From a virus, in UHGV virus genome UHGV-0197549: DNA of 64,000 nucleotides, one strand, 5' to 3'. The notes under the pieces are model-generated. The model was given only the letters and a program-made list of their open reading frames with translations. It was not told the DNA's origin and did not search any database. The translations under genes were made by a program, and so were the position numbers. Every line of letters begins with the position of its first letter. Positions within the stretch are counted from its first letter, which is position 1. Shown here one piece after another: positions 1 to 59,915 of this stretch.

Positions 1-591
1 ATGCATATATTTTCCAAACGACACGCTTTCCGCTTTCAGGAAGGCAAGGGCAGGTTTCTCGTTTCCGGGACGCTCTTTTTACTGTTACTTTTATTCAACC
101 CGTATAGTTCGCAGGCGCAACGCGTGGCTGTAAAGACCAACCTTGTGCAATGGGGCGCCGCTTCACCGAACCTCGGGCTGGAGTTTGCACTGGGAGACAG
201 GTTTTCCCTGGAATGTACCAGCGGAGCAAGCCCTATACGTCTTTTCGACACATGGTATTTCAAGCACCTGCATTTGCAGCCCGAACTCAAATACTGGTTC
301 GGAACGCTGATGGCGGGCCATTATGTCGGCGCTACCGCTTTCTTCTCTACTTTCGACCTTGCGATGGGGAAAAGGGCAGCTTTCGGCGATGCATACGCTT
401 TCGGGGCTACCTACGGTTATCAATGGATTCTCTCACGGCGATGGAATGTGGAACTGGCTGCCGGTCTGGGAGCCATCCGACACCGCACGGTACGTTATGT
501 GCCCGGCACCGGACATGGCGAGCCCAATCAGTCGGGCTGGGCCATCGCGCCCGTCAAGCTGGGAATCTCCTTTGTATATATACTCAAATAA
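1..591 (+). CDS. DUF3575-like outer-membrane beta-barrel protein; may extend upstream of the window
   Basis: ORF with N-terminal signal peptide (LFLLLLLFNPYSSQAQ) and alternating aromatic/Gly beta-strand pattern typical of small Bacteroidales OM beta-barrels; family assignment is from memory. Confidence 0.45.
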   Translation: MHIFSKRHAFRFQEGKGRFLVSGTLFLLLLLFNPYSSQAQRVAVKTNLVQWGAASPNLGLEFALGDRFSLECTSGASPIRLFDTWYFKHLHLQPELKYWFGTLMAGHYVGATAFFSTFDLAMGKRAAFGDAYAFGATYGYQWILSRRWNVELAAGLGAIRHRTVRYVPGTGHGEPNQSGWAIAPVKLGISFVYILK

Positions 592-601
592 AACAAACGA
601 T

Positions 602-3310
602 ATGAAACTGATACAAAGAATAGTATTGGCTGTGGTGTGCTTATTTGCCGCACTGCCTTCATTCTGCCAGAATCCGAAAATGGAAATTACAGGTACGGTG
701 ATGGATGACGACGGGCTGCCCGCCATGTCGATTGTCATCCGGGACAAGACGGAGAACGGGGATGTATATGGTATCACGGACTATGACGGTAACTTTAAGA
801 TCATGGCAGACCCTACCACCAGCCTGCACCTCTCGGGATTGACGTATGCGCCGAAGGTGGTGAAGCTGAAAGGAAAGCAGAAAATCAACGTGGTGATGTC
901 CTTTGATACACAACAGTTGGATGAGGTGGTGATTGTGGCCAAACGTATCACCAACAAGCTGGCGCCGGAACCTACCGATATTGAGATTGTAGGCAACCAG
1001 TATATCATCCGTCCGAAGGTGAAGATACCCAAAGAAATGTTCAAGCCCAACAGCCGGGTAATTGTACAGCCGATGCTGGTGAATATCACAAGGAACACAC
1101 AGAAGCTGTTCCGCCCCGCCGTGGTGACGGGCAAGGAATACGCCATCACGCTGGAACGCATGATGGAATTCGACCTCACGCAAGACCCCCTGCATCCCTA
1201 TTATGAGAAAAGCAAGCGGATTGATGGTAACGAGGTCATCGCTTATGTAGACTCACTGTATCTGGACGATCCCGACGACGAGTGCCGCTGTGACATCTTC
1301 ATGTACTTGGTGAATTACCGCAGGACAACCTATCAGGACACGGTGGTGATAGCCAAAGGTACCATCAACCCGATGCGGTTCTTCGACTTCAATATCGGGG
1401 CACAGAAGATTACGGACGAGAAGTACGTGCCACGACCGAAAAAGCAGTTGCGCGGGGACAAGGGACAGGTGAACCTCACCTTCCTTATCAATACGGCCAA
1501 GATAGACTATGACGACCCGAACAACACGGTGGAACTGGAAAAGATGCAGGGAAAGCTCACCCATGTGGATAATGACCCGAATTCGGAGTTCATGGCATTC
1601 AGCGTTACCGCTATATCATCGCCGGAAGGCCCGTACCAGAGTAATCTCAAACTGGCATGGAAGCGTGTGGCTACCGCCAAAGAAACCATTCTGAAATGCC
1701 TCAATCCGGGTACTGTGCTTGCCATGCAGGACAGTATCAGTTTGGATGCGCGGGTGGATACCTGGGAAAGCGTGGCGGCCCTCATGGAGAGGGATTCGGT
1801 GCCTGCCGAAGGGGTAAGGGAAGCCATAGAACGTAATCCGGGAAATATGGAAGCGCAGTACCGGCAGATAGTACGCCTGCCAAATTACCGTAGTGTCATC
1901 TTCAGCGATTACCTGAAACAACTCAGACGGGTGGAATACAGTTTCAGCTATTCGGTGATGAGACTGCTCAATGATGACGAAATCCGCCAGATGTACAAGA
2001 AGAATTACAAGGACCTTGTACAGTATGAGTTCTGGCGCATGTATGTGAACGCCAAGACGGATGCGGAAAGGGAAAAGATATGCTGGCAGGCACTGGAGGT
2101 TTATCCTAAGTTTATGCTGTTTGCCAACGAGCTGGCAGTGATACTGATAGACCGCAAAGAGGCGGATGTTACCTTATTAGAGCCTTTCATCACCGACAAG
2201 GCACCGCAGGAACTGCTTTGCAACCACATTATAGCCTTGTTGGACGATAAAGACTATGTTCGCGCCGACTCCGTAGCCTCGATGCTGATGGACAGTCCGG
2301 TAACGGCCGACGTGAAGGCGCTTGCCGGAGCGTTCAACGGTAACTTCCAGGCGGCTTACGACCGGTTTGCATCCCGTGGGGGAACAAACGAGGTGGTTCT
2401 TCTTCTGGCACTCAAACGCAACGAGGAAGCTTTTGACAAGACGGACGAATTGCCGGATGAAGCGCTTACCTATTATCTGCGTGCCGTAGCTGCCAACAGG
2501 CTGGACAAGATTACGGATGCTTTTGCTAATTTGAAGAAAGCGTTTGCGGCTGATCCCAAGCTGAAGGATGTGGCACGGATAGACGGGGACGTGACGGATT
2601 TGCTGCAACAGTTGGAGGATGAAGAAAAGGAGAAGGCGGAACAAGCGAAGCTGGCGAAGGAGAAAAAGAAGGAGAAGGAAGATGCGGGCGGTGAAGAACC
2701 GGTTGTCCCTGCAACCACGGAAGAATCCGGAGTTTCGCTGAATATTGAAACGACTGTAACCGATATAAAGGGGAAGGTCAAGAAGGCGAAAGCACCCAAG
2801 GAAAAGAAACCCAAGAAGGAGAAGAAGCCTAAAAAGCAAAAGGTGAAAAAGGATGAGAAGGACGGGAAGGCGGAAGAAGCAACAACGACGGACTTAACGC
2901 CGGAAGCTTTGTCTAATGGTACGGACAGCGTACGCATGGAACTCAAAGCGATCACCGACACCATCAGCCCGATCACTCCTATTGTGATAACAGACACGAT
3001 AAGCAACACCGCTCCGGTTATAGAGGAAGCCATCATCGGGGACACCATCGCCGAGCCGGGAGCGGAAGCACCGGCTGAAAAGGTGGAGAAAGCAAAGAAG
3101 GTGAAAAAGGAGAAGAAGGTGAAAGCCAAGAAAGAAAAGGGCAAGAAAGAAAAGAAAGCCAAGGAACCGGCTCAAACGGAAGGTGAAAGCGATGCGGTTG
3201 CCGCCCAAGCACCGGAACCCAGCCGGGCGGAGATGAAACGCAATAAGGGAGGAAACGGAGAAGAAAATAACGATAAAAAGGAAGATGACAATGAAAACGA
3301 AACCAAATAA
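602..3310 (+). CDS. large secreted or lipoprotein-like protein with C-terminal Lys/Glu-rich low-complexity tail
   Basis: In-frame ATG at 602 followed by signal peptide MKLIQRIVLAVVCLFAALPSFC; long ORF; C-terminal ~250 aa dominated by KEKK/KKEK repeats. Confidence 0.55.
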   Translation: MKLIQRIVLAVVCLFAALPSFCQNPKMEITGTVMDDDGLPAMSIVIRDKTENGDVYGITDYDGNFKIMADPTTSLHLSGLTYAPKVVKLKGKQKINVVMSFDTQQLDEVVIVAKRITNKLAPEPTDIEIVGNQYIIRPKVKIPKEMFKPNSRVIVQPMLVNITRNTQKLFRPAVVTGKEYAITLERMMEFDLTQDPLHPYYEKSKRIDGNEVIAYVDSLYLDDPDDECRCDIFMYLVNYRRTTYQDTVVIAKGTINPMRFFDFNIGAQKITDEKYVPRPKKQLRGDKGQVNLTFLINTAKIDYDDPNNTVELEKMQGKLTHVDNDPNSEFMAFSVTAISSPEGPYQSNLKLAWKRVATAKETILKCLNPGTVLAMQDSISLDARVDTWESVAALMERDSVPAEGVREAIERNPGNMEAQYRQIVRLPNYRSVIFSDYLKQLRRVEYSFSYSVMRLLNDDEIRQMYKKNYKDLVQYEFWRMYVNAKTDAEREKICWQALEVYPKFMLFANELAVILIDRKEADVTLLEPFITDKAPQELLCNHIIALLDDKDYVRADSVASMLMDSPVTADVKALAGAFNGNFQAAYDRFASRGGTNEVVLLLALKRNEEAFDKTDELPDEALTYYLRAVAANRLDKITDAFANLKKAFAADPKLKDVARIDGDVTDLLQQLEDEEKEKAEQAKLAKEKKKEKEDAGGEEPVVPATTEESGVSLNIETTVTDIKGKVKKAKAPKEKKPKKEKKPKKQKVKKDEKDGKAEEATTTDLTPEALSNGTDSVRMELKAITDTISPITPIVITDTISNTAPVIEEAIIGDTIAEPGAEAPAEKVEKAKKVKKEKKVKAKKEKGKKEKKAKEPAQTEGESDAVAAQAPEPSRAEMKRNKGGNGEENNDKKEDDNENETK

Positions 3311-4475
3311 GACTGGGTACCTGTTGATAGCCCTACTGTTTTTGATGTGCCTGCCTGCGGGCATGATGGCGCAAAACCGCCAGAAGAAGGACACCGTTCA
3401 ACGGAAAGAGAACATCAAGGCGTCCGAATACATGATACCCAAACGCCGGGGCGCGGACAAGTTCGCCTCAAAGAAGGGAACGGAACATCTGTTCTTCTCA
3501 GCCGGCGCCGGCATGACGCGGTTATTTGATATGGGAAGTAAATTCGCCGCCCACGGTCCGAGGGCTTCGCTGTATGCGGGCAACTGGATAACACCGGTCA
3601 TCGGTATCCGTGGCGGAGTGGATTACAGCATGTGGCGGGGTGACAAGGCTACCAACCTCGTAGGGGTAAGCGCGGATTACCTGATTAACCTCAGCTCTTT
3701 TGCAGCGAGATATAATCCCAAACGCGTGTTTGAAGTGGTGGCTGTTATAGGCATCAGCTACCAGGCAACCATGATGCCCGGAGTGGAAACCATCCATTCA
3801 TACGGGCTGCATGGGGGATTGCAGGGGAAATTCAATATTTCCCCCGCCTTCAACCTGTTCATCGAGCCGCAGTTAGGGCTGTACCCCGACCGCCTGGACA
3901 ATCATTTCTCATGGAGGCGCTATGACCTGGTTGCCTCCGCTATGGTGGGCATCACTTATAAGCCTTCGGGATTCAGCCAGTCATGGTTGTTGCAGAACGG
4001 CTTCGCCTCGGTTTCAGCCGGAACGGGGAACACGGGGAACATGCTGTTCAATACGGAATTTGCACTGGGCAAATGGCTCGGGAAGTCACGTATAAACGGC
4101 ATCCGCATCTCGGCGGGAAGCAGCACGGCATTTCTGGACAGCGATGACAACGGGGCGGACAAGGATTTCAATGTGAACCTTTGCGCCGATTATCTCTGTA
4201 ACCTCACGACTTTGTTTGCCGACCGCAAGAGCCGGGTGTTCGACCTGATCTTCGCCGGAGGTATCGGAAGTTATTTCCCCGGTGCGGAATCCTCCGCCCC
4301 TATCGTTCTGAACGGACGCATCGGGTTACAGGGACAAATGAGGTTGTCGGAGTTTATGGGCGTATGGATTGAGCCCCGAATCAACATATTCAAGGACAAG
4401 AGCTACCGAGCGGACTTGCAGGAACCCATACGGGGGACGGTAGGCGTAATGATAGGAACCAGTTATAAATTTTAA
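3285..4475 (+). CDS. outer-membrane beta-barrel (porin/OmpA-like) protein
   Basis: Signal peptide LLIALLFLMCLPAGMMAQ; Gly/aromatic-rich alternating pattern; C-terminal aromatic residue (KF). Confidence 0.5.
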   Translation: MTMKTKPNKTGYLLIALLFLMCLPAGMMAQNRQKKDTVQRKENIKASEYMIPKRRGADKFASKKGTEHLFFSAGAGMTRLFDMGSKFAAHGPRASLYAGNWITPVIGIRGGVDYSMWRGDKATNLVGVSADYLINLSSFAARYNPKRVFEVVAVIGISYQATMMPGVETIHSYGLHGGLQGKFNISPAFNLFIEPQLGLYPDRLDNHFSWRRYDLVASAMVGITYKPSGFSQSWLLQNGFASVSAGTGNTGNMLFNTEFALGKWLGKSRINGIRISAGSSTAFLDSDDNGADKDFNVNLCADYLCNLTTLFADRKSRVFDLIFAGGIGSYFPGAESSAPIVLNGRIGLQGQMRLSEFMGVWIEPRINIFKDKSYRADLQEPIRGTVGVMIGTSYKF

Positions 4476-4481
4476 GGATAC

Positions 4482-4808
4482 ATGCGGAAAGGAAAGGCGG
4501 GTCTCTTGAAAAGGGAGATTATTACAGAAGTCTGTAAGCGGGTGAAGTGTATGAGAAAGGAAGCTGATGGCATCATAAATGCTTATACGGATGTGATAAT
4601 CGAAGAGTTGAAGGAGGAACGCTCTTTCAGGATAGAGCGGCTGGGAACGCTGCGATATGTGCGCTCGCAGCCACGGAACGGGTTTAACCCGCTCAAACAA
4701 AAGAAGGAAGTTTTCACAGGTAGAAACAAGATAAAGTTCACTCCCTCGAAGGCGGTGGCAAAGTTGCTCAATCCGCCGGAAGATGCCGGGGAGGATAAAG
4801 AAGATTAA
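4482..4808 (+). CDS. HU-family DNA-binding protein
   Basis: C-terminal segment RLGTLRYVRSQPRNGFNPLKQKKEVFTGRNKIKFTPSKAVAKL matches the HU/IHF arm motif (GFGTF..R.ARNP.TGE...I.A...F). Confidence 0.7.
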   Translation: MRKGKAGLLKREIITEVCKRVKCMRKEADGIINAYTDVIIEELKEERSFRIERLGTLRYVRSQPRNGFNPLKQKKEVFTGRNKIKFTPSKAVAKLLNPPEDAGEDKED

Positions 4809-4929
4809 AAAGACACTATATTTCCCACGAAATATAATTGGGGGCTGTAACGAACTGTTGTGAAACATTCTGCCCCGTTTCTCACTAATAAACGTTCATG
4901 CTGTGAAGCATGGCCTTATTTCCCTAAAA

Positions 4930-4982
4930 GGCGCCCTGCCGTGAATTTCCCTAACCCCAGCGGACGGGGCGCCTTATTTTTT
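4930..4982 (+). terminator. rho-independent terminator after the HU gene
   Basis: GC stem GGCGCCC...GGGCGCC followed by TTATTTTTT. Confidence 0.7.
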
Positions 4983-5123
4983 GAGAATAATACATCATTT
5001 CATATATGACCGGCTGCGTCAGGAGTGGCGATAGCCTTATTGTTTGTTTTGTTTTTAGGCACCTAATGTATTGTGAAATACTTGTGGCTAATAAGCCCTT
5101 CGCCGTAAAAGGCAAGGGCTTTC

Positions 5124-5393
5124 TTACTTCCGGACAGGACGGGCGTGAATCTCCACCCGTTTGTCATCAAGGATACGTTTCATGGCTTTCCAGACGGGCA
5201 TCTCTTCGACACCCGCAATCTTCAAAGCTTCTACAATCATGGTGTTCTCCACGAACCGGAGATATTCGTCTTCAGGAACCGGGATACGCCTGTCTTCCTG
5301 TGTTTTAAGTCTTGCCATAGGGAGTTTTGTTTTAGGAGTGGTAAAGGGAGGACTGCCTATTTTCACAAACCGGACGTCCTTTGGATTAAACAA
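5124..5393 (-). CDS. small basic protein at the left edge of the element (possible Xis/DNA-binding protein)
   Basis: ORF only; basic and small (MARLKTQEDRRIPVPEDEYLRF...); function inferred from position and size alone. Confidence 0.3.
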   Translation of the reverse strand: MFNPKDVRFVKIGSPPFTTPKTKLPMARLKTQEDRRIPVPEDEYLRFVENTMIVEALKIAGVEEMPVWKAMKRILDDKRVEIHARPVRK

Positions 5394-6510: not shown

Positions 6511-7161
6511 TTAACGCAGCCTTTGGGCCTTCGAAAAGTGGGCAAAACGCTCGTCCGTACGGGACGTGTTGAACGGAAATTCACACTTCCAGTAACGGTA
6601 GACTCTATCTTCGGGTGAAGTCCTGTAATACACGTCGTTATGGTCTATCCACTGCACCCCCTGTTCGGTGTTCCTGTCTATATATGTGGGACTGTCCGGA
6701 ATCTTGGGGTTGGGACCTGCATAAAGGTTGCACTTGTCACGGCCTTCCACAAATATACAGTGAATTTCTAAGATCGGATCGACATCATATTTGCGGGCGA
6801 ATGCTGCGAACTCGTAAATATCCGTCTCATACAAGCTACCGCCGAAGTGTTCGGGCGCTTCCTTTTGCAGGCGTTCCATGGCTTCCTGAATGGGTTTGCG
6901 GGATTCGATTTCCTTCAGGCGTGCGGGAGTAACCGCTTTACTTGTCACGTAGGCTATCCGGAACCCGTCACCGCCACTGTCGGTGACATGGAGGTTGCAG
7001 AGGTGTTCCACCCTTTTCCAGGCATCGTCTATCGGGTCGGTGGTATCGGCGCAATCCTTGATGCAGATGATAATGACGCCAAATACCACCATGATGGGTA
7101 CAGAGAACCTTGCTATAAGGATAATCCATACCTGCGTGTTGTCGTTATTCTTCGGGCTCAT
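6511..7161 (-). CDS. hypothetical membrane-anchored protein
   Basis: Start chosen at MSPKNNDNTQVWIILIARFSVPIMVVFGVIIICI (N-terminal TM helix); remainder hydrophilic; no family recognised. Confidence 0.45.
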   Translation of the reverse strand: MSPKNNDNTQVWIILIARFSVPIMVVFGVIIICIKDCADTTDPIDDAWKRVEHLCNLHVTDSGGDGFRIAYVTSKAVTPARLKEIESRKPIQEAMERLQKEAPEHFGGSLYETDIYEFAAFARKYDVDPILEIHCIFVEGRDKCNLYAGPNPKIPDSPTYIDRNTEQGVQWIDHNDVYYRTSPEDRVYRYWKCEFPFNTSRTDERFAHFSKAQRLR

Positions 7162-7495
7162 AGATTTTGAGTATGTGGGTTCCGTCTTCGTCGCGTGTCT
7201 CATTGGTACAGGTGGCATATCCCCGGGCGGTCAGCCTTTTGCGGTAGCTCTCCAGTTCTCCTGCCGGGAAGCGGGTCACATGGATGGCCGCACCGTTCTC
7301 TTCAAGGTAAAGCTCCTGCGGGATTTCCAAAGCCTGGGAGACAAGGGCGGAGTCTTCCAGAAAACACTCGTAATTACCGGCTACATGGAAAAGCACTATC
7401 GCGTCTCTCCCGAACCTTTCTTTCATTACGCCGACGATATGCCTGATATAGTCAGCGTTAATCAGTTGATTGTCTTTCATTTCTTCTTTTATCAA
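7145..7495 (-). CDS. stand-alone MutS domain I (mismatch-binding domain)-like protein
   Basis: YIRHIVGVMKERFGRDAIVLFHVAGNYECFLEDSALVSQALEI aligns to MutS domain I [38 protein letters not shown] (GxFYE to GNYE, Glu retained); HVTRFPAGELESYRKRLTARGYATC aligns to [26 protein letters not shown]. Confidence 0.65.
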   Translation of the reverse strand: MIKEEMKDNQLINADYIRHIVGVMKERFGRDAIVLFHVAGNYECFLEDSALVSQALEIPQELYLEENGAAIHVTRFPAGELESYRKRLTARGYATCTNETRDEDGTHILKIYEPEE

Positions 7496-8163: not shown

Positions 8164-8514
8164 TTATCCCATAGTTATCAGGTGGTAACCCATCGAATCG
8201 AATTCGGCAGCTTTGATTAGGCCGCCCTCATAGGCTACTTTTATCTCCGGAAGCAACATGTCCTCATCCACACCGTAACGGTTCATGGTGTTAGTGCATA
8301 AATAGAACTGCACATTTTCACCCGCCAGACGGGTTATATTCTCTTTGAGGGTTTTCATATTCGTACGTTTCAGGCAGGATAGCAAAGCGGTGCCTATGGC
8401 AACGACGGCAATATTTTCTACTTTACCGGACTTCAATAAATTGTCGGCATGTGAGAAGGCTTGTTCCCAGTAGCCGTCTTCACGAATAAGGAATACAAAA
8501 CTGAATTTTTCCAT
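8164..8514 (-). CDS. DsrE/DsrF/TusD-like family protein
   Basis: 116 aa; VVAIGTALLSC...FYLCTNTMNRYGV...GYHLITMG matches the DsrE-fold pattern (GdGv...fyvCtns...Gi...gykvit). Confidence 0.55.
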   Translation of the reverse strand: MEKFSFVFLIREDGYWEQAFSHADNLLKSGKVENIAVVAIGTALLSCLKRTNMKTLKENITRLAGENVQFYLCTNTMNRYGVDEDMLLPEIKVAYEGGLIKAAEFDSMGYHLITMG

Positions 8515-8577: not shown

Positions 8578-8859
8578 TCATGACGACTCATTAATCCGGT
8601 TAATAAAAGTGGTGTCGGGACGCTGGAATTTGCCGTTGGCATAATCATTTGCCACCCTCTTATAGGTCAGGCCGCAAATGATGCCGCCGTCGGAATCTGC
8701 AAGTCCCATAGAATAGGCTTTATACTCGCCCACAGTCCTGAACTCTCTCACATCGACTGCGCCTCCATGGGCGTTGAGCCACTTGGTTGAAGGAATTTTC
8801 CCTGTCTCGTCATATTCCCTGACGGCTGAACCGCCGCAAATTACTGTTGCTTTTATCAT
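8578..8859 (-). CDS. hypothetical protein
   Basis: ORF; start taken at MIKATVICGG to avoid overlap with the next gene. Confidence 0.35.
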   Translation of the reverse strand: MIKATVICGGSAVREYDETGKIPSTKWLNAHGGAVDVREFRTVGEYKAYSMGLADSDGGIICGLTYKRVANDYANGKFQRPDTTFINRINESS

Positions 8860-8872
8860 GCTATATAAGGTT

Positions 8873-9217
8873 TTATTCGTTATTTCCCAGTTCGTCTTCA
8901 AATGTATCAAGCATATTTTCGTATAATCTGCACAGCCAGTCGAGGTTCTGGCAACCTAAGTCATGGCTGTATAAGGTGGCCGCAAAACCTGTATCTTCAT
9001 CCTCGACATCCAGACTGATACCGTCCTTGTCAAGGGAGACTTTCCTGACCGAAGAATCGTATGCGTTCCCATTATTGTCAAACCAAACGACATAACACAA
9101 GTCGTCCAGATCGTCGTCCAGTTCCAGTTCTTCAAGCCCACGCTCCTTCAGTAGATTGATAATGCTGTTCACAATCTCTTTTCGCAGTCCGTTTACCTTT
9201 TGTTGATAATCTTTCAT
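8873..9217 (-). CDS. small strongly acidic protein (DNA-mimic-like composition)
   Basis: ORF; runs of D/E (LEELELDDDLDDL, DVEDEDTGF). Confidence 0.45.
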   Translation of the reverse strand: MKDYQQKVNGLRKEIVNSIINLLKERGLEELELDDDLDDLCYVVWFDNNGNAYDSSVRKVSLDKDGISLDVEDEDTGFAATLYSHDLGCQNLDWLCRLYENMLDTFEDELGNNE

Positions 9218-9233: not shown

Positions 9234-9824
9234 TTAAAATTTAATATATTGATAGATACTGTTGATTTCATCTTTATTCAGTCCGATATATCTTTTGGTA
9301 GTCCGTACGCTTTCATGTACCAGAATCTCATTAAGATACAGCAGGGATTCGGCGCTTCTGCCACATTGTTCGTATAAGAACCTGCCGAACGTCTTCCTGA
9401 AAGAGTGCGTGGAGAAATGCTTGATGGATAACCCGTACTCCCGCTTGAAGTCTTTCAGCTTGTCATTGATGTGCTCCAAAGAATAGGTACGTTTGCGGCG
9501 ATAGTTGTAAATGAGGGGCATATTTTTTTCAGGCTGCCCCATGAGTACGTAAAGCTCCTGCAATTTGGTAGTGACCGACGGGTTCAGGGGGATGCTGCGC
9601 GTCTTCTTTGTCTTATGCTCAATCTTCACCAGTTCGTCAGTGTCGAGCACGTCTATCCAGCGAAGAGTCAGAAGGTCGGATATGCGCAGGGCGGTGCAGA
9701 ACGCCACCCGGCAATAGAGTTCCCATGTATATTGCTTATCTTTTCTCAGGCAATCACACAGGCGGTTGAACTCGTCAATCGGCAGGTAATCTGAGGTAGT
9801 GAGTTGTCCTTTGATGCGTGTCAT
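9234..9824 (-). CDS. minimal tyrosine recombinase (catalytic domain only, 196 aa)
   Basis: Catalytic residues in order: ALRISDL (Arg), HSFRKTF (HxxR), RYIGL (Tyr nucleophile context); no N-terminal core- or arm-binding domain. Confidence 0.8.
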   Translation of the reverse strand: MTRIKGQLTTSDYLPIDEFNRLCDCLRKDKQYTWELYCRVAFCTALRISDLLTLRWIDVLDTDELVKIEHKTKKTRSIPLNPSVTTKLQELYVLMGQPEKNMPLIYNYRRKRTYSLEHINDKLKDFKREYGLSIKHFSTHSFRKTFGRFLYEQCGRSAESLLYLNEILVHESVRTTKRYIGLNKDEINSIYQYIKF

Positions 9825-9825
9825 A

Positions 9826-10593
9826 TTATATTGTAATTTTACTTTTATTCAATTGATTGTTTTGCTTCTCCATATCCGGTTTCAATACTTCCCGAATGGC
9901 GGCTTCCTGCTTACGGCGTTGCCAGAAGTTCCAGAGGGCGGATTCTTCTTTGGGTATTTCACGGACTGAAGGCAGACCGCATTTTCCCAGATGTTCGTTC
10001 ACAAGCCAGCCGCCGTAATAGGTGTCGGGGTTAAGGCTGTCATGCCAGATCACTTCGCCATGGCAACCGTGAATGATAAGGTTACACACTGTCATCATGC
10101 AACAAGTACGGTCAATATCTTCCGCCACCAGATAACTCTTGGGGTGTTCGGCATGTGCGGACAACAAAGTGCGCCCACTGCCACAAGTCGGGTCGGAAAT
10201 CATGCCGTTCTCGTTGACAGCCTTGCCCATAACCATCGTCATCAGCTTGCATACATCATCCGGGGTAAAGTTTTGCCCCAGATTTTTCGTGCGGCTGCTA
10301 CCGCCGGTAAGAGACATGTACAGGTCACCAAATACATCATACCAGCCTTGTATGGCTATTTGTCTTTTCATTATCAGTATCCAGTGGCAGAGTATCTTCC
10401 AGAACACAATGTTGTGTTCCTTTTTATAACTCCATGGTTTAAGGGGTTCGGCTTTCCAAGTGAAGTACCCGATTATGTATCTAAGCATGTCATTGAAGAC
10501 TTCCGTCATGTCATAGCCGTTAGTATACATGAATTGTCTCAATAATTTCTCAATCTCCCGCACTTCGGGGGGAGCTTCGCAGTTTGTACTCAT
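9826..10593 (-). CDS. N6-adenine DNA methyltransferase-like protein with atypical or missing motif IV
   Basis: GQNFTP and DPTCGSGRTLL (motif I) plus the LVAED...NLIIHG region match N6_Mtase; the expected NPPF/NPPY is replaced by a compressed HDSLNPDTYYGGW; stop lies 1 nt before the recombinase ATG. Confidence 0.55.
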   Translation of the reverse strand: MSTNCEAPPEVREIEKLLRQFMYTNGYDMTEVFNDMLRYIIGYFTWKAEPLKPWSYKKEHNIVFWKILCHWILIMKRQIAIQGWYDVFGDLYMSLTGGSSRTKNLGQNFTPDDVCKLMTMVMGKAVNENGMISDPTCGSGRTLLSAHAEHPKSYLVAEDIDRTCCMMTVCNLIIHGCHGEVIWHDSLNPDTYYGGWLVNEHLGKCGLPSVREIPKEESALWNFWQRRKQEAAIREVLKPDMEKQNNQLNKSKITI

Positions 10594-10604
10594 TGGTAGT
10601 AGGG

Positions 10605-10646
10605 TATAAAAAAAGCGGTAGAGTTTTTAGTTCCACCGCTTCATCA
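10605..10646 (-). terminator. rho-independent terminator (minus strand) separating upstream genes from the MTase-like/recombinase pair
   Basis: Minus strand reads AAGCGGT-loop-ACCGCTT followed by TTTTTTT. Confidence 0.55.
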
Positions 10647-10664: not shown

Positions 10665-11120
10665 TCATTTCTTTTCTTCGTAGCCTTCAACCTGCTTCAT
10701 CACCATGTTGCAGAAGGTCTGTCCGGCATCCGTGTATTGGCTGAAATACCGTATCATCTTGAAGAAGTTGAATTTAAACTCGCCCCACTTTCCGTAATAG
10801 TGGGCGCCCATCACGTTGCCATAGGATTTCCGGAACAGTTCCGGCGTCAGCCCTTCCGTCGCCCGGACACAATTATAGTCCCAGTTTGCGATCCGGAGCA
10901 TAAGCCGGAAATTCAGCGGTTGGATTTTCCAGGTACCTGAACAGTGTTCCCCGGTTTCTTCTTCGGTAAACTCACCGGAATCGGCATCTTCTGCCAAATT
11001 ATTGAAAATAACCTCCTTCACGGAATCCGGAATAAATTCAAGCTCTTCGCCTTCAGGAGTGGTGGTGAAGTCCACCTGGATAGTGTGGCCGTAATATAGT
11101 TCGGTTAATATTTGTCTCAT
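10665..11120 (-). CDS. hypothetical protein (151 aa)
   Basis: ORF in co-directional tight array. Confidence 0.4.
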   Translation of the reverse strand: MRQILTELYYGHTIQVDFTTTPEGEELEFIPDSVKEVIFNNLAEDADSGEFTEEETGEHCSGTWKIQPLNFRLMLRIANWDYNCVRATEGLTPELFRKSYGNVMGAHYYGKWGEFKFNFFKMIRYFSQYTDAGQTFCNMVMKQVEGYEEKK

Positions 11121-11157: not shown

Positions 11158-11568
11158 TTAATCACAAAAATCCGTTGTACAATATGTTTCAAAATAGCTC
11201 TCACAGATAAGTTGATTCCATTCGGCATCACTACCCAAACTATCCCGTAAGTATCCGTAAGTTCGCATTAATTCAAGCCGCTCTTCCTCGTCTATATCGT
11301 CAATATTAATATCACCGGAGCACCAGAGTCGCCCATTGGAGATAAATTCCTTTACTTCCGAGACAACTGAAGATAAACGGATCAGTTCTTCCGGATAGCC
11401 ACCCAATATGTCGTAAATGATTCGCTCGGTAGAGTCCGATTCAGGCAACAGTTTGTCGTGGCAACAGTTCGGCTCGCAATACCAGAACTCCTTATCGGAA
11501 AGTGGCAGGCAGAACTGGAGCGTATCGGGGTCGGTAAATTCGATGTTGGGATTGAGTAGGTTTTTCAT
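11158..11568 (-). CDS. hypothetical acidic protein (136 aa)
   Basis: ORF; acidic stretches (NIDDIDEEERLEL). Confidence 0.4.
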   Translation of the reverse strand: MKNLLNPNIEFTDPDTLQFCLPLSDKEFWYCEPNCCHDKLLPESDSTERIIYDILGGYPEELIRLSSVVSEVKEFISNGRLWCSGDINIDDIDEEERLELMRTYGYLRDSLGSDAEWNQLICESYFETYCTTDFCD

Positions 11569-11601: not shown

Positions 11602-12078
11602 TTAGTGCTCGAATGATTTTTCTGTCAGATAATTAATCTTTAGCTCTTTACATACCATCCAATTGATGTTGTCAAGGCTGTACTGGCAATGGCAGGCCAG
11701 GAAAGTTTCAATCATATCGCTATCGTCAGACATCTTTGTCGTGATAATGTCCACTTCGTTTGTTTCCTGGCACAAGACAGCAATGGTGATTACCTGCTCT
11801 TCCGGGATATTCAGACTTTTGATGAGCAAGCTAATCTCATCCTTGCTCTGTTCATTTGACAGCCATATTTCAAAGGTCTTGTAGGTGACGGCATCTTCCA
11901 GAATAGTTTCATAGTCATCTGAACTTAAACCTACCCAGTCATCGTCATCTCCGTACTCCTTGCACATGATATCAATGTGATGTTTTTCACTGATACTTTG
12001 CTCTCCCTTGTCGGGGTTTAGTAAGTATAGGGCTTCCGTACGTGTAAGGGATATATCAAAGTTTGTTTCTTTAGTCAT
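11602..12078 (-). CDS. hypothetical acidic protein (158 aa)
   Basis: ORF; KEYGDDDDWVGLSSDDYETILED. Confidence 0.4.
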   Translation of the reverse strand: MTKETNFDISLTRTEALYLLNPDKGEQSISEKHHIDIMCKEYGDDDDWVGLSSDDYETILEDAVTYKTFEIWLSNEQSKDEISLLIKSLNIPEEQVITIAVLCQETNEVDIITTKMSDDSDMIETFLACHCQYSLDNINWMVCKELKINYLTEKSFEH

Positions 12079-18125: not shown

Positions 18126-19442
18126 CTATAATGATGCGACCAAAGTATTGTACACAGCCCGTCTTGTCAATATGGCATTCTGCATACAGCCAAGGGTCAG
18201 ATACCCCGGGATGCCCCCCACGGTCTTGCCCCGGTTGGCTTTAACGTTACGCCCCAGCCCCCGGACTATGCAACCGTCACTCTTTGTTTTGACGTACCCT
18301 AAGCCGCCCACCTTGCGCTTTCCAGTCTGCACCGCTCTCAGGCAGTCCATCACGAACTTGTTTAATTCGTCGAGGTCTTTCCTCACGTTGCATACCGGAA
18401 GTATCTGCGTAGCCCAGCTAAACTCCCCGTTACCTTTGTAGAGGTAGCGGTTTACAGCGTTAATGGCTTTTGTCAGCGTTATTCCCGGCTTGCGGATTGT
18501 GCGTTTCTCTATTTCATGCTGAAACGTTTTGATACGGCTGGAGGATAAGGAGATCATGCTGCCTTTGATACTGAACCCAAGAAACTTGAACCACTTGTCC
18601 ATAGTCAAATATTCAACCTTCTTCGGGTTTAGCTTCATCGTCTTCTCTTCCAACCGGCTCTGGAGCACGCTCATGGCTTTCCCGTATTCTTCCCCGACAA
18701 ACAACATGTCGTCAGAGTATCGTGTGTAGAAACCATCCATTTGAGACAGTTCTTCGTCAAGGTCATACAGCAATACATCGGCAAGCCAGCTTGCCACAGC
18801 GCACCCTTGCTTGAGGGACTGGTATTGACGCAGGAGGTTGTTATCCTCATCGAAGTATAAATCACAGTGGTAGTATTTCCGCAGCACATCAATCAAAGCG
18901 GAATGACCATGCTGCGCTTCCACCTTGTCGAACGCTTCGTCTATGTATTGAACAGGCACACTATCGAAATATTTGCTGAGGTCTGATTTCCAGCCAAAGT
19001 ATCCGTCTTTTTCAGTGGCTACCATTTTATTACTGACTTCGGTCACAACCTTACCACAACCAATCTTTGTTTGGTAGGATTTACACGAGACATGAACCAT
19101 CTCGGGCATCAGATCGAAAAGCAAGTCATTGGCGATGCTTAATATCACCCGGTCAATGGGTTCATTCACGTAAACCGTGCGGAACTCACCGTTTTCTTTT
19201 GGTATCTGGGCGGTGTGGGGAGGTGAAATCTCATACTTACCCTTCCTCATGGCATCAGCAATCGCTATCCGGGTGTTCTCGCCGGTCAGCAATATAAGCT
19301 GGTCCTTCCGAATGTCCTTACCTACACCTTTCTCTATGGCTTTCGTCCACCGGTCAATATCGAAGAACATCTGTAAAATCTTGTCAATCTTATCTATCTT
19401 GTCTGGCATAATCCGTAGTGTTGGTTTCTTTTGTAATATCAC
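18126..19442 (-). CDS. reverse transcriptase (RT domains 0-7 plus thumb; group II/retron-like; family undetermined)
   Basis: IPKENGEFRTV (motif 1), EPIDRVILSIANDLL (2), DLSKYFDSV (3), LKQGCAVASWLADVLLYDLD (4), YTRYSDD (YxDD, motif 5), LNPKKVEY (6), FKFLGF (7); thumb-like AINAVNRYLYKG. Confidence 0.85.
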   Translation of the reverse strand: MILQKKPTLRIMPDKIDKIDKILQMFFDIDRWTKAIEKGVGKDIRKDQLILLTGENTRIAIADAMRKGKYEISPPHTAQIPKENGEFRTVYVNEPIDRVILSIANDLLFDLMPEMVHVSCKSYQTKIGCGKVVTEVSNKMVATEKDGYFGWKSDLSKYFDSVPVQYIDEAFDKVEAQHGHSALIDVLRKYYHCDLYFDEDNNLLRQYQSLKQGCAVASWLADVLLYDLDEELSQMDGFYTRYSDDMLFVGEEYGKAMSVLQSRLEEKTMKLNPKKVEYLTMDKWFKFLGFSIKGSMISLSSSRIKTFQHEIEKRTIRKPGITLTKAINAVNRYLYKGNGEFSWATQILPVCNVRKDLDELNKFVMDCLRAVQTGKRKVGGLGYVKTKSDGCIVRGLGRNVKANRGKTVGGIPGYLTLGCMQNAILTRRAVYNTLVASL

Positions 19443-21429: not shown

Positions 21430-22539
21430 TTATTTGTTTGCAGTTTTACGCAAGTTGCCATATAAGGGGTGAGTGCTCCGTTTCTTACGACCGGATGCCA
21501 TCTCCTTCATGACCGCCTTGTATATATTGTCGAAGTCTTCTTTCTTCAAGCGTGGGAAGAAGTCCGCATAGATAACCTCGAATACGCTAAGCCTGCCGTC
21601 CGGATTCAAAGAGAAGAAACTTCTCATTCTATCTTTTGCCTCTGCGAGTTGCCTCCGGGTGCAAGCTTCGGCAGCTTCCTTGATTGCCTTGGAGGGTTTG
21701 TTTTGCTTCCGTGTGTTTGGCTCGGCATACCGCTTTTCCGAACGAGGGAGAAAAGCATCGGAGAAAAAATCGGATCTGTAATCCCGACGCTGGGGACGCA
21801 CTTCCTTATGAGTGTATACTTCACGGCAGTTCTCAACGATATGCTCCACAAGTGTGAGGCATTTCTTCAGATCGGCTATGTTTGTCATTTCGTGGGGAGT
21901 GTGCGGGTAATAATAACCGCATGAGATGTTAGCGCATGATATTTCCAGTCCTCTTTGGCGTAAGGTCTGGACATCGGTTTGCATCCCGCGTTCTTCCTTA
22001 TATCCATGCTCCCCGAGGGAAGCATCTTTTATAAACTGGGATGAGCAAAGAGGATTGCCGTAGATGTTGCTGATAAAGTCACTGTTCCCTTTTCGGTCGC
22101 ATTGGAGTACGAACCGGCAGTCATCGAAGAACTTCATGTCCGCCTGATGACTGCCGATACATCCTTGTTCCTCACCAACAAAGAATACACATTTCAGGTT
22201 ATCGAATTTCTCTAAGCATTTCAGACATACCCAGATGCCGTTCTTGTCATCAGCCCCGATACCGTTGAACTCACGTTTCCCGCTGTTGAAGCCGATAATG
22301 AACTCATCCCTGACAACCAGGACTTCGTAACCTTTTTCCCTCGCCTCATGCACTTCGTCCAGATGGGCGGCAATGCACGGGTAAGTATCAGCGTTGCCTT
22401 TGGTGGCATAGATATTACCAGTTTCGTCTACGGTAAAGGTTACGCCGAGGTCTGATAATCTTTGGGAAACGAACGCGATCATGTCTTTTTCCTGATGCGT
22501 GCGGGCTGAGATGCCATATAGTTCTTTCAATAATTCCAT
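21430..22539 (-). CDS. M20/M28/M42-type metallopeptidase-like protein with C-terminal basic extension
   Basis: Metal-ligand pattern AAHLDEV (HxD) ... GADDKNG ... GEEQG. Confidence 0.5.
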   Translation of the reverse strand: MELLKELYGISARTHQEKDMIAFVSQRLSDLGVTFTVDETGNIYATKGNADTYPCIAAHLDEVHEAREKGYEVLVVRDEFIIGFNSGKREFNGIGADDKNGIWVCLKCLEKFDNLKCVFFVGEEQGCIGSHQADMKFFDDCRFVLQCDRKGNSDFISNIYGNPLCSSQFIKDASLGEHGYKEERGMQTDVQTLRQRGLEISCANISCGYYYPHTPHEMTNIADLKKCLTLVEHIVENCREVYTHKEVRPQRRDYRSDFFSDAFLPRSEKRYAEPNTRKQNKPSKAIKEAAEACTRRQLAEAKDRMRSFFSLNPDGRLSVFEVIYADFFPRLKKEDFDNIYKAVMKEMASGRKKRSTHPLYGNLRKTANK

Positions 22540-22597
22540 GATGTATGTTTTTAATTTTTTGTTGGTGAGGATTCTTATATAACTGAACTGTGGGAGA

Positions 22598-43949: not shown

Positions 43950-43960
43950 AGTCCCTTTAA

Positions 43961-43975
43961 TTCCTATTTGGAAAT
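43961..43975. promoter_or_regulatory. half-site of the recurrent motif (CCTATTTGGAAAT) at the moron boundary
   Basis: Sequence match (reverse complement of TTCCAAATAGG). Confidence 0.4.
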
Positions 43976-44800
43976 CGCATCCTTTCGGTGCGGTTTCTTT
44001 TTTTTATGATGAAGCACTCTTCCTCTAAATTTATGCAGTTCAGTGCTTTTAACCCAAATACCATTAAACTTAGGATGAACCAAAACAAAAAAAATGAATA
44101 TTAGGACACATAAAAATGATAAGATTATAAAGCCAGGGACATACTTTTCAAACCAAACTTCATCCAATTGAAACTTATTTATATGCATAAAACAATGGAT
44201 TATAAAAGCAACGCACCATATAACAAACGAAATTTGGCCTATTGCAATATTTATTTTGGATGGAGAGTAAGCTCCACCTTGGCACTTAAAAATACAATCA
44301 TTTATATCTGTGGCATTGTATCCTTTTAAAAGCTGATACTGAAATCCTCCTATAGGTAATTTGTTTATTCCGGAATTAAGAACTTCGCCATTTACCAAAC
44401 TTTCATCACATTCAAAAGCATCAATAGCATGTTCATACCTCTCATACCAAGCTTTCGAACCTTTGGCCATCATAATCCAAAGAGAAGAAAATATAATATT
44501 AACTAAACATAGTACGAGAGCTATATTATTTAATATATAGGCTGACGGTGACACTACATATTCTACATTATCAAATAGTTTTATTGTAACAACTCCATAT
44601 CCGGTAAAACATAAAACAAGTATAGTCGTTAGAAATATAGAGCGTTGCCAAAGATGTGACAATTCAAAATCCCGACATCTCCATAAAGAATCTCTTATAT
44701 CCTTAGTTGTTATCTCAGAATTAAGAACAATATTATCAGTATTAATGGTGTATTTCAGTTTGCTTTTACTGCATTTTTCTCTTTTACTTCTTTTCCTCAT
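43964..44800 (-). CDS. low-GC multi-pass membrane protein (4 predicted TM helices), moron
   Basis: Hydrophobic segments IFLTTILVLCFTGYGVV, ILNNIALVLCLVNIIFSSLWI, ISFVIWCVAFIIHCF, GFIILSFLCVLIFIFFVLV; local GC far below the flanking structural genes. Confidence 0.6.
   Translation of the reverse strand: MRKRSKREKCSKSKLKYTINTDNIVLNSEITTKDIRDSLWRCRDFELSHLWQRSIFLTTILVLCFTGYGVVTIKLFDNVEYVVSPSAYILNNIALVLCLVNIIFSSLWIMMAKGSKAWYERYEHAIDAFECDESLVNGEVLNSGINKLPIGGFQYQLLKGYNATDINDCIFKCQGGAYSPSKINIAIGQISFVIWCVAFIIHCFMHINKFQLDEVWFEKYVPGFIILSFLCVLIFIFFVLVHPKFNGIWVKSTELHKFRGRVLHHKKKKPHRKDAISK
43976..44006 (+). terminator. rho-independent terminator after the tail tube gene
   Basis: CGCATC-cttt-GGTGCG followed by GTTTCTTTTTTTT. 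Confidence 0.55.
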
Positions 44801-44857
44801 ATTATTTATGATATATATTTTTACAAATGTAAATATATACCATTTTTATTAGAACAG

Positions 44858-46117
44858 CTAATAAATTTCAATAAAATCATCCGGATTCGTTGTATATTGC
44901 TTTGACAAATACTCACTTTTCAGTGCCCATTTCTTCCCGGTTCCCTGTGCCGCTACCTTCAATATTCTCGTACCATATTTCTTATGCACCATATCCAGTA
45001 CTTCAAGTACCTTCTCATGTTTTAATCTGTCACGTTCATCAAACAGATTCAGTTGGACGCTGTTTTGTGGTTCAATATCCATTACGATCACTCCTGCCTT
45101 TTTATACTGATACCCTTCCTTATATATATTCTTCAGTGCCAATCTTGCATAATGGATCAACTCTGCCACGTCATTAGTCGGTGTCGGCAAGGTTATCATC
45201 AGACTATTATAATACTGGGGTAAATCCTCCCGGAACCGGTTGGTATAAATAAAGACCTGGAGCATTCCGGTGCAGGAACGTTGCGCACGGAGTTTCCTGG
45301 CACAGGACGCCATGAAATTAGCTACGGATTCCATCAGAGTATCAAAGTCTTCTATCATCTCCCCGAAGCTCCGGGAAGTGCAGATGGTTTGTTTGGCAGG
45401 AGCGACAGGTTCCAATTCAAATGCCGGGATGCCTCTTAACTCTTTCCATGTCCTGACACCTACCACAGTCATTTGCTTTCTTACCCATTCTTCACTTTTT
45501 TGTGTCAGGTCATAAGCGGTTTTAACACCGTAATATTCAAGTTTCTTCTGGTAACGGCGTCCAATCCCCCAGACATCGGCGATATCAAATTGTTTGAGAG
45601 CCTTTATCCGCTTTTCTTCGCTGTCAATTACACATACGCCTTTATAACCTCTGTATTTCTTTGCAAATTTCGACGCCACTTTCGCCAATGTTTTTGTTGG
45701 TGCTATGCCCATTGATACGGGTATGCCGGTACCTTTTGTTACAGCCTTAACTATCTTGCTTCCATATTCGCCCAGATCATAGTTTTCAAATCCTTTTAGA
45801 GAAAGGAAACTTTCATCTATCGAATATATTTCCATATCTTCAACGAACTGGCTTAGAATCGTCATAACCCTGTGCGACATGTCCCCATATAACGCATAAT
45901 TACTGGAGAAAACGGCAATTCCATGTTCCTCTATCAGTTTAACCAGTTTGAATACCGGTTCGCCCATAGGTATACCAAGCGCCTTTGCCTCATTGCTTCT
46001 CGCTACGACGCATCCATCGTTATTACTTAATACGATAATTGGTACATCCTTCAAATTCGGTTGGAACACCCTTTCGCAAGATGCAAAAAAGTTATTGCAA
46101 TCGACTAATGAATACAT
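44858..46117 (-). CDS. umuC: Y-family translesion DNA polymerase, UmuC-like
   Basis: MYSLVDCNNFFASCERVFQPNLKDVPIIVLSNNDGCVVARSNEAKALGIPMGEP closely matches the UmuC N-terminus. Confidence 0.85.
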   Translation of the reverse strand: MYSLVDCNNFFASCERVFQPNLKDVPIIVLSNNDGCVVARSNEAKALGIPMGEPVFKLVKLIEEHGIAVFSSNYALYGDMSHRVMTILSQFVEDMEIYSIDESFLSLKGFENYDLGEYGSKIVKAVTKGTGIPVSMGIAPTKTLAKVASKFAKKYRGYKGVCVIDSEEKRIKALKQFDIADVWGIGRRYQKKLEYYGVKTAYDLTQKSEEWVRKQMTVVGVRTWKELRGIPAFELEPVAPAKQTICTSRSFGEMIEDFDTLMESVANFMASCARKLRAQRSCTGMLQVFIYTNRFREDLPQYYNSLMITLPTPTNDVAELIHYARLALKNIYKEGYQYKKAGVIVMDIEPQNSVQLNLFDERDRLKHEKVLEVLDMVHKKYGTRILKVAAQGTGKKWALKSEYLSKQYTTNPDDFIEIY

Positions 46118-51351: not shown

Positions 51352-51381
51352 TTATTCATATATCAAAAAAACTAACTAATA

Positions 51382-52359
51382 ATGAGCAGACTTATCAATA
51401 TCGGTGTAAGCACCCTGCTGAGCGGCGGCATCATCGGCAGCGGCAGCGCGGAGAACTATGTCAGTGACGCCGCCTGCCATGCCTTGGGCATGGGCTTGTC
51501 ACAGTTTGCCGACGGGCAGGTGCAATACTTCAGCAAGGACAGGCAGATACTTAAACGGGCGCTGGTCCAGACCACCTCGCAGCTTGCCTACGGGATGCTG
51601 CGCTCTTATCCCAGGTACCTGAAATACTGGGAGCAGAAAGAGAGGGACAAATACCTGCAAACCATGTCGCAGACCAGCATCGCCAACAAGACGGGGCAAT
51701 ATTACCAGCTTATCAGCGAGCAGCAGGCGGTCGCCAAAAAGAAGAACTATTCGGATACCGTTGCCGGCAACATCGTTCCGGACTATCTGGAGCTTTCCAT
51801 CAGTGCCGAGGGAATGTATTTTGATACGGAAACCATGAAGATAGAAACCAATTCCAAATACGGTCTGGTCACGTTTGCCGACCTACAGCCGCAGGTACAG
51901 GTCAGCAGCAAGAACAACATCGTCCTGACGACCGTTCAGGGACGGGATTATACCCGGAAGGAATTTATTTCCGGAGGCGACCTGGAAGTAAATATCAGCG
52001 GCAAGATTACAAGCAAATATCCCGATGTGTACCCGGAAGCCGAAGTCAGCAAGTTCCTCAAGCTGATGCAGTACAAGGGGGTGATAGAGTGTGACAACAC
52101 CATCCTGCGCCAGTTCAGAATCGAAAAGCTGATTGTGCTCAACTACTCCTTCCCGGCAAGCGACTGCCGTAACATCCAGCCTTATACGCTTTCCTGCGTG
52201 GCGGTGGAGCCTTCGGAGGCGGTGGAACTGAAACTGGCATCCCAAGAGAAGGTGGACACTGCCATCAAACATACGAACAAATGGATTAAGCTCGCGCAGT
52301 TCGGGACAAAGGTAGTAGATCCTTCCTCACTCTTAACACTTACCAAACAATGGCTGTAA
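51382..52359 (+). CDS. tail or baseplate protein (putative)
   Basis: Position directly after the tape measure gene. Confidence 0.45.
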   Translation: MSRLINIGVSTLLSGGIIGSGSAENYVSDAACHALGMGLSQFADGQVQYFSKDRQILKRALVQTTSQLAYGMLRSYPRYLKYWEQKERDKYLQTMSQTSIANKTGQYYQLISEQQAVAKKKNYSDTVAGNIVPDYLELSISAEGMYFDTETMKIETNSKYGLVTFADLQPQVQVSSKNNIVLTTVQGRDYTRKEFISGGDLEVNISGKITSKYPDVYPEAEVSKFLKLMQYKGVIECDNTILRQFRIEKLIVLNYSFPASDCRNIQPYTLSCVAVEPSEAVELKLASQEKVDTAIKHTNKWIKLAQFGTKVVDPSSLLTLTKQWL

Positions 52360-53669: not shown

Positions 53670-53687
53670 ACAGAAAAAGACAAAACA

Positions 53688-56218: not shown

Positions 56219-56232
56219 TTTAACCTTAAACG

Positions 56233-58494: not shown

Positions 58495-58512
58495 CTTAAA
58501 CCTAAATCAACT

Positions 58513-59823: not shown

Positions 59824-59840
59824 GTGCTATATGGAAGTTT
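59812..59840. promoter_or_regulatory. copy 4 of the palindromic motif (reverse orientation), overlapping the stop of the previous gene and ~80 bp upstream of the tail-fibre ATG
   Basis: TTCCAAATAG-GTGC-TATATGGAAGTTT. Confidence 0.5.
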
Positions 59841-59851
59841 GATGTTTTTTT

Positions 59852-59885: not shown

Positions 59886-59915
59886 CCTATTCTACCTTAG
59901 ACTAAACCTTAACCA

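Follow-up and report, generated by a model that had tools for sequence, protein, structure and literature searches.

The viral genome UHGV-0197549, of which we analysed a stretch of 64,000 nucleotides (the window), carries at positions 9,234 to 10,646 two adjacent genes on the minus strand, one encoding a minimal tyrosine recombinase and the other a protein that resembles DNA methyltransferases (hereafter MT-like). The window represents a Bacteroides prophage in its integrated state, about 95 kb in size and similar to the phage BS-TP1, and is neither a conjugative element nor a plain chromosomal locus. With moderate confidence, we regard the two as independent accessory genes that are neighbours by chance, constituting neither a switch, nor a functional pair, nor an integration module; this degree of confidence applies to the explanation as a whole, that is, to the prophage setting, the role of the 196-residue protein as a second recombinase, the nature of the MT-like protein and the meaning of the spacing between the genes. 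The two genes are:

9826 to 10593, minus strand: MT-like gene, 255 amino acids, an HsdM-derived ‘half methyltransferase’ (list of open reading frames, ORFs; Pfam)
9234 to 9824, minus strand: tyrosine recombinase gene, 196 amino acids (ORF list, Pfam and NCBIfam)

The sequence-only reading from which this study started had placed the recombinase start codon 1 nt beyond the stop codon of the MT-like gene, and direct reading of the sequence bears this out, the TAA stop occupying positions 9828–9826, a single base position 9825 and the ATG positions 9824–9822. The translational or functional coupling suggested by this spacing did not survive comparison with other loci. In the viral loci centred on an MT-like gene, a recombinase gene lies within 6 kb in two of 80, which are the two closest relatives, and in those centred on the recombinase an MT-like gene lies within 10 kb in five of 80, directly adjacent upstream in four cases and downstream in one. 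The gap between the genes in these relatives is 1, 4, 19, 25, 97 or −4 nt, and one relative, 82% identical (loci L098 and L106), has kept the recombinase without an MT-like gene. Adjacency, as far as these loci indicate, recurs but is dispensable for both families, and translational coupling is not conserved; the 1-nt gap is a case of compact phage gene packing, not of an obligate module.

That the pair forms one module, whether as a methyltransferase subject to phase variation or to control by the recombinase, or as a decoy of the Ronin kind with an HsdM scaffold and a linked integrase, seems to us highly improbable in view of the low co-occurrence, the spacing of −4 to +97 nt and the close relative without the MT-like gene, despite the proximity of the stop and start codons and the adjacency, which is seen both in the close clade and in another whose recombinase is 54% identical. 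The Ronin system, in which HsdMS can serve as a decoy without recourse to catalysis and in some cases has an integrase linked to it (bioRxiv 10.1101/2023.04.06.535777), does provide a precedent for an HsdM scaffold working apart from methyl transfer in the conflict between restriction and anti-restriction. However, Ronin is host-encoded and comprises a full-length HsdM with an intact NPPF motif, an HsdS and a 61-residue toxin, RonA (bioRxiv 10.1101/2023.04.06.535777), whereas no HsdS domain (Methylase_S) was found in the ten ORFs flanking our pair, nor among the larger ORFs scanned elsewhere in the window; no search was aimed at a small membrane protein or toxin resembling RonA. Furthermore, the neighbour cluster most widely shared by the MT-like family (22 of 80 loci) would seem, from inspection of its sequence, to be a large terminase. 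The proposal of a phase-variable methyltransferase likewise finds neither an hsdS gene nor repeats to work with: unlike phase-variable Type I restriction-modification (R-M) systems with an hsdS shufflon, the region around the pair has no hsdS copies and no inverted repeats.

The recombinase itself is complete. The Pfam domain Phage_integrase (PF00589) matches residues 14–184 over profile positions 3–170 of 172 (E = 2.5e-20; 73.4 bits, against a curated cut-off of 27.1) and, because this catalytic-domain match takes up the length of the protein, there is no room for an arm-binding or core-binding domain. Arg47, Lys71/Lys74, the His140-x-x-Arg143 motif, His170 and Tyr179 are invariant in an alignment of 27 family members. 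Both the catalytic residues (R, HxxR and Y) and the lack of N-terminal DNA-binding domains were thus read correctly from the sequence at the outset. The family, which corresponds to PHROG phrog_216, comprises more than 414 clusters at 90% identity, nearly all of 195–197 residues. An AlphaFold 2 model (predicted local distance difference test score, pLDDT, 90.7) shows a single catalytic domain, whose best structural matches are the catalytic domains of XerA (5hxy) and XerH (5jjv), with template modelling (TM) scores of 0.69–0.72 and an alignment to residues 138–311 of XerA; the best NCBIfam matches are similarly the C-terminal halves of XerA, XerC and XerD. These results show an intact, catalytic-domain-only tyrosine recombinase from a large family of conserved length. 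Because its catalytic residues are invariant, its length is fixed and its single-domain model is complete, it is neither degenerate nor accidentally truncated, and the suggestion of a degenerate integration module receives no support, all catalytic residues being invariant in so large a family.

In size and architecture, the protein is comparable to FimB and FimE of the Escherichia coli type 1 fimbrial switch and differs from phage integrases, as had been proposed: it shares with FimB a length of about 200 residues given over to the catalytic domain, and residues 12–193 of the family are collinear with residues 9–188 of FimB. Characterized recombinases of this architecture, such as FimB/FimE and MrpI, are invertases. 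Like FimB and FimE, the recombinase presumably needs DNA-bending accessory proteins. The sequence resemblance to FimB, however, amounts to 21% identity, which is not significant in BLASTP (E = 0.55) and reaches a probability of 30% in hhalign, so that, judged from its sequence, the protein has the FimB architecture and is not a member of the FimB family. It also differs from FimB and FimE in having no adjacent invertible element with short inverted repeats beside it and in coming from a phage whose genome includes a full-length integrase gene as well. Among the simple recombinases (XerA, XerH, XerD and Cre), the Xer proteins give the best sequence and structure matches to the catalytic domain, but our protein has no core-binding domain, the feature by which simple tyrosine recombinases are defined (PMC8138268), and no dif- or lox-like site is seen near its gene. 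Compared with the heterobivalent integrases of phages, it is without the N-terminal arm-binding and core-binding (SAM-like) domains.

A Fim-like invertase driving a switch, either in the phage or in trans on phase-variable host loci such as the neighbouring one for pili and outer-membrane proteins (OMPs), is an explanation that we judge unlikely. It would account for the architecture of about 200 residues, the catalytic domain alone and the collinearity with FimB over residues 12–193, and would fit with the position of the prophage, which abuts host loci with their own 400-residue recombinases, as related prophages also adjoin pilus/OMP loci having recombinases of their own. Against it, inverted-repeat scans of the whole window, and local ones covering 4.5–13.5 kb, gave chance-level pairs only near the two genes, apart from a terminator hairpin described below; among palindromes whose arms reach 10 nt, this hairpin was the only one that a strict scan of 7.9–11.7 kb returned. 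The same scan showed no lox- or dif-like site, consisting of two inverted arms and a 6–8-bp spacer, degenerate or distant sites being outside its reach. More than ten related loci, compared as assembled contigs, were all colinear, with no orientation variant, and the closest curated families are Xer-type, without specific affinity to FimB. Hence the recombinase-controlled invertible switch envisaged in the sequence-only reading, which would need flanking inverted repeats and inverted arrangements among the relatives, receives support from neither.

One inverted repeat in the window is statistically notable, at 22169–22186 and 22554–22571; its arms are complementary at 17 of 18 positions, lie 367 nt apart and span the 5′ end of an M42/M28 peptidase-like gene, with a chance expectation that we estimate at about 0.03. 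It was rejected as an inverton for want of conservation in the upstream arm and because four related contigs run colinear across it, and it is probably due to chance.

The reaction catalysed by the recombinase may be a simple intramolecular one on a short site. By analogy with Cre and Xer, we would tentatively suggest that the enzyme resolves replicative multimers or cyclizes the phage genome, and action of this kind on a replicating circular genome would parallel that of Cre in phage P1. Inversion of a segment at a distant site is less probable than resolution or cyclization, and we give a slim chance to its being an auxiliary integrase, which is again less favoured.

In order to place the recombinase within the prophage, it is necessary to describe the setting. 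Pfam scans identified as phage genes in the window those for KilA-N/ANT antirepressors, a Mu-type portal, MuF, a ClpP-type protease, a tape-measure protein, a DUF6046 protein, a UmuC-like moron, a reverse transcriptase and giant tail proteins, and the gene pair sits in the long leftward ‘early’ arm. The early-gene end of the prophage and the host DNA beyond it are located as follows:

5100 to 5124, no strand: junction of prophage and host DNA at the early-gene end, placed by the end of homology to relatives and lying 4.1 kb beyond the recombinase gene in its direction of transcription
1 to 5100: host flank left of the junction, with genes for a DUF3575 protein, a 995-residue surface protein, an OMP and an HU-family protein (Pfam)
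3285 to 4475: host OMP gene (396 amino acids), left of the junction
4482 to 4808: host HU gene, left of the junction

Homology to relatives stops at about 5107 for locus L081 and at the stop codon at 5124 for L097; the viral contig L105 terminates exactly at 5124, and five short metagenome contigs (L091–L095) break off at 5069–5137. Bacteroides faecalis has an orthologous host locus with a more distant phage relative at the same place. At the other side, the window ends inside the gene for a 1655-residue tail protein and the prophage continues beyond it; a locus on a 315-kb contig (L204), which is 100% identical to window 48513–64000, was counted for prophage context. A nucleotide search of INPHARED with the window gave no near match. 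Searches for an empty site (attB), using the host OMP protein against reference genomes and a host-side DNA pattern against metagenomes, returned occupied sites only, and neither an empty site nor both junctions of one insertion were recovered. Because the phage combines Mu-type head genes with multiple flanks, Mu-like transposition was considered; it was rejected, there being no transposase among the ORFs scanned and a tyrosine integrase at the prophage end.

That integrase was found in the closest relative, contig 186220, which is 92–96% identical to the window and whose far end encodes TerL and an HU-family protein together with the C-terminal portion of a tyrosine integrase, which runs toward the contig start. 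The family of this far-end integrase has 427 residues, comprising Phage_int_SAM_5 (PF13102) and PF00589, and in other assemblies it directly abuts host genes, namely rplQ/mutS2-like genes, HU-HIG or the gene for an extracytoplasmic function (ECF) sigma factor. A similar arrangement is seen in the Bacteroides phage BS-TP1 (111.7 kb), cultured on B. salyersiae BG8 (PMC12694917), which shares with the window phage the Mu-like portal, MuF, the ClpP-type protease and the giant tail proteins, and which encodes both enzymes: gp51, labelled ‘integrase’ (PQ571274.1, 60415–61032), a homologue of our recombinase in the same length class with 52% identity, and gp119, a 426-residue integrase near the terminase. 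Near the beginning of the early arm, the gp51 gene adjoins that for an NAD-dependent ligase and has no MT-like neighbour. Homologues of gp119 occupy the very termini of provirus contigs in IMG/VR, and in three of these the mini-recombinase is also present, 40–66 kb inside. Gene order and homology therefore show integration as assignable to the canonical 427-residue integrase, with its adjacent HU-like gene, at the opposite end of the prophage, and the mini-recombinase would, as far as the evidence reaches, be a second recombinase and not the integration enzyme.

The view that the 196-residue protein is the prophage integrase, be it sole, alternative or auxiliary, or the decayed remnant of one, could draw on the ‘integrase’ annotation of the databases, on the position of the gene 4.1 kb from the junction, toward which it is transcribed, and on the finding that at least 24 of 80 viral contigs stop no more than 10 kb beyond the 3′ end of the recombinase gene, contig ends on its upstream side being very rare. 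We nevertheless consider it very unlikely. Eight to nine genes separate the recombinase from the junction, so that it is not next to att at the prophage end; both enzymes are present in BS-TP1 and in three provirus contigs; a full-length 427-residue integrase occupies the opposite prophage end in the closest relative, and in relatives it directly abuts host DNA; and the protein, with invariant catalytic residues and a length fixed at 195–197 residues, is not decayed.

At the integrase end (L352–L355), identical or near-identical phages adjoin at least three host flanks (rplQ/mutS2-like, HU-HIG and ECF sigma factor), and at the early-gene end there are likewise at least three (window ~5100, L081 15372 and L097 13130), with HU/OMP genes, an AraC-integrase-FimA cluster and a GerE-like gene among the examples. 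Because identical integrases adjoin at least three flanks, with at least three also at the early-gene end, the 427-residue integrase appears to be of low target specificity. In two independent insertions, a CTnDOT-type recombinase of about 400 residues lies beside pilus/OMP genes in the host DNA next to the early-gene end (L088 3474–4685 and L081 16949–18148), which is either coincidence or target preference. These host-flank integrases (403 residues in L088, 399 in L081) were rejected as candidates for the phage integrase: they are 33% identical to each other and 26–29% identical to BS-TP1 gp119, and host pilus/OMP genes, which B. faecalis also has in conserved form, lie between them and the phage.

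Turning to the MT-like protein, the Pfam family N6_Mtase (PF02384) matches it over profile positions 3–118 of 311 only (E = 5.8e-11). The motifs GQNFTP (residues 106–111), DPTCGSG (134–140), AEDID (157–161) and WHDSL (183–187) are present, so that the S-adenosylmethionine (AdoMet)-binding motifs X, I, II and III are kept; there is no NPPF/Y in the protein, and motif IV is degenerate, reading Val198-Asn199-Glu-His-Leu. In the family alignment, Gln107 and Phe109-Thr110-Pro111 of motif X, Gly138-Ser139-Gly140 of motif I and Asn199 are invariant, and the regions of Glu158/Asp159 (motif II) and His184 (motif III) are also conserved, whereas the residues after Asn199 vary and the C-terminus is variable. 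The initial description of a retained motif I and a collapsed motif IV therefore stands, Asn199 being the only conserved residue at motif IV, and profile alignment revealed no intact NPPF/Y further along. Aligned by hhalign with EcoKI HsdM, the MT-like protein matches no further than residue 183, short of motif IV; the alignment covers residues 112–240 of the HsdM profile, ending before its NPPF, which we take to lie at 266–269.

The AlphaFold 2 model of the MT-like protein (pLDDT 85) has an N-terminal helical domain, strands β1–β5 only, with Asn199 at the end of β4 in the position of NPPY, and a long C-terminal helix after the strands; there is no β6–7 hairpin and, on both the profiles and the model, motifs V–VIII and a target-recognition domain are absent. 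The best matches among solved structures are HsdM proteins (the best in the PDB being 3lkd, from Streptococcus thermophilus), with a TM score of only 0.37. With the HsdM of EcoKI and S. thermophilus the protein shares motif X (GQxFTP), motif I (DPxCGSG), the acidic residue of motif II, motif III and the helical N-terminal region; it differs in being about half as long, in lacking NPPF/Y, motifs V–VIII and the C-terminal HsdS-binding region, and in having no hsdS or hsdR partner gene. PADLOC, too, matches only the N-terminal methyltransferase half. The comparisons show a family of proteins of about 250 residues, derived from the N-terminal half of Type I HsdM, that has lost the PP-aromatic residues, strands β6–7 and any target-recognition domain.

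The family forms 119 clusters at 90% identity and at least 412 at 50% identity (E ≤ 1e-30), the best 150 of which are all 140–326 residues long, and because it is a large family of short proteins with conserved residues, the gene is not a recent pseudogene. Its near families in PHROGs are phrog_5696, of unknown function, and phrog_1071, a short ‘DNA methyltransferase’; the match to phrog_5696 (profile 74–243 of 250, E = 2e-23) places the protein in an already catalogued, uncharacterized phage family, which is far larger in metagenomes, as the number of clusters at 50% identity indicates.

The strong constraint on the AdoMet motifs (GSG, Q-x-F-T-P and Glu158/Asp159), together with the invariant Asn199 and the size and age of the family, might suggest an active methyltransferase, with RNA, protein or a small molecule as its substrate, or else DNA if a partner supplied the missing half. 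We attach little probability to this, since similarity to the HsdM profile ends before motif IV, only five strands are predicted and the residues after Asn199 are variable. Moreover, clustering of the neighbouring genes revealed no conserved partner of the family in 80 loci, and on this ground the split-methyltransferase partner was rejected. The protein may instead bind AdoMet, or the partners of Type I R-M systems, without methylating DNA alone, and would probably act as a counter-defence or host-takeover factor. This role would fit with the arm in which the gene lies, which is rich in small acidic proteins (isoelectric point, pI, of about 4) and other accessory genes. By analogy with Ronin, a decoy or non-catalytic methyltransferase is possible.

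We also considered a more far-reaching proposal, either or both parts of which might hold: that the recombinase family consists of trans-acting phage invertases or resolvases rewiring phase-variable loci of the host or phage, and that the half-methyltransferase is an AdoMet-binding mimic of HsdM poisoning or titrating Type I R-M or BREX-like complexes. It appears distinctly unlikely.

Several observations weigh against our view of two independent genes, one of them a second recombinase. The adjacency recurs in a second clade, in which the recombinase is only 54% identical (L183/L184), and is found once in reversed order (L110), and because of this recurrence a loose functional link between the two genes is possible. 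The far-end integrase was seen in the 92–96% identical relative and in others, the window's own contig ending at 64 kb. Finally, no target site of the recombinase was found near its gene, and its proposed role in resolution or cyclization rests on exclusion and analogy.

Two further features define the transcriptional context of the pair:

10605 to 10642, minus strand: hairpin resembling an intrinsic terminator, with an 11-bp stem (10642–10612), a 9-nt loop and a U7 tract (10611–10605)
8873 to 9217, minus strand: next gene, encoding an acidic 114-residue protein (pI 4.06) and starting 16 nt past the recombinase stop codon

The hairpin lies 22 nt past the stop codon of the upstream gene (10665–11120) and 11 nt before the ATG of the MT-like gene. 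Its predicted folding energy is −15.2 kcal/mol (z = −4.77), and none of 200 shuffled sequences was equally stable; a simple terminator scanner missed it, probably because the 9-nt loop exceeds the 8-nt limit of the scanner. The 71 nt between the upstream gene and the MT-like gene show no Bacteroides-type promoter motif. The terminator scan showed no terminator-like site on the minus strand between the recombinase gene and 8873–9217 and, because this next ORF follows without one, the recombinase is not the last gene of its unit. Of the proposal that the pair forms its own transcription unit behind a terminator, therefore, the upstream terminator is upheld, but the unit runs on beyond the two genes.

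Small, very acidic proteins (pI 4.06–4.21) flank the pair (window 8873–9217, 11158–11568 and 11602–12078, minus strand) and could be DNA mimics. A motif of the 8873–9217 protein (VWFDNNGNAYDS...VSLD..GISLDVEDED) is found again in many paralogues, which in related phages are encoded downstream of mini-recombinase genes. The ORF at 8578–8910 (minus strand) joins the N-terminus of one gene to the C-terminus of another, a fusion produced by a 1.7-kb deletion relative to L001, which also took out the gene for a 108-residue secreted protein and an internal copy of a junction-like element. The junction itself, on the host side (window 5017–5120), consists of a hairpin followed by ACAAGTATTTCNCAATACAT...AAACAAAACAAACAATAAG, and related phages contain internally a second, direct copy of this element of about 100 nt, some 750 nt downstream of the recombinase gene (L001 8131–8235; L099 9276 and 13103); the element could be att-like or a moron of host-DNA origin. 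The terminal accessory region also encodes a protein with MutS domain I only and a DsrE-like protein, each of 116 residues (window 7145–7495 and 8164–8514, minus strand).

Elsewhere in the prophage, the reverse transcriptase (window 18126–19442, minus strand) is a near-perfect full-length match to PADLOC RT_UG27 (E = 6.7e-234), a defence-associated class. A link to a diversity-generating retroelement (DGR) was rejected, as the enzyme is of the UG27/DRT type and no template/variable repeat pair was found near its gene. A direct repeat of 231 nt, 81% identical between its copies at 61983–62213 and 62994–63224, lies inside the gene for the 1655-residue tail protein, which has an ILEI domain; its mismatches are not A-biased, and it was rejected as a DGR template/variable pair and taken as an internal domain repeat. 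An intergenic palindromic motif of about 26 nt, GAAACTTCCAAATAGCACCTATATGG, occurs at window 21393, 28129, 29685, 32439 and 59809, with an inverted copy at 43952, and could be an operator, terminator or promoter element. Genes for a UmuC/ImpB-type translesion polymerase and an 8xMP membrane protein (window 43964–46117, minus strand; fraction of guanine plus cytosine 0.37) interrupt the structural module on the opposite strand, an insertion that looks like a moron.

The value of these findings is mainly corrective. The 196-residue family is routinely annotated ‘integrase’, yet on the present evidence the mini-recombinase is a second recombinase distinct from the integration enzyme; such annotation may have contributed to the temperate label of BS-TP1, although that phage also has a full-length integrase. 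In the same way, short HsdM-like proteins are annotated ‘N-6 DNA methylase’ despite having no catalytic motif and only half the fold. Were the half-methyltransferase to act in anti-restriction, or the mini-recombinase as a trans-acting invertase, either would be a new mechanism, and an HsdM mimic titrating Type I R-M or BREX-like complexes would constitute a new class of anti-restriction protein, although nothing that we found requires either. Both families are abundant in gut Bacteroidales phages, where they are catalogued but uncharacterized, and a cultured relative, BS-TP1, exists.

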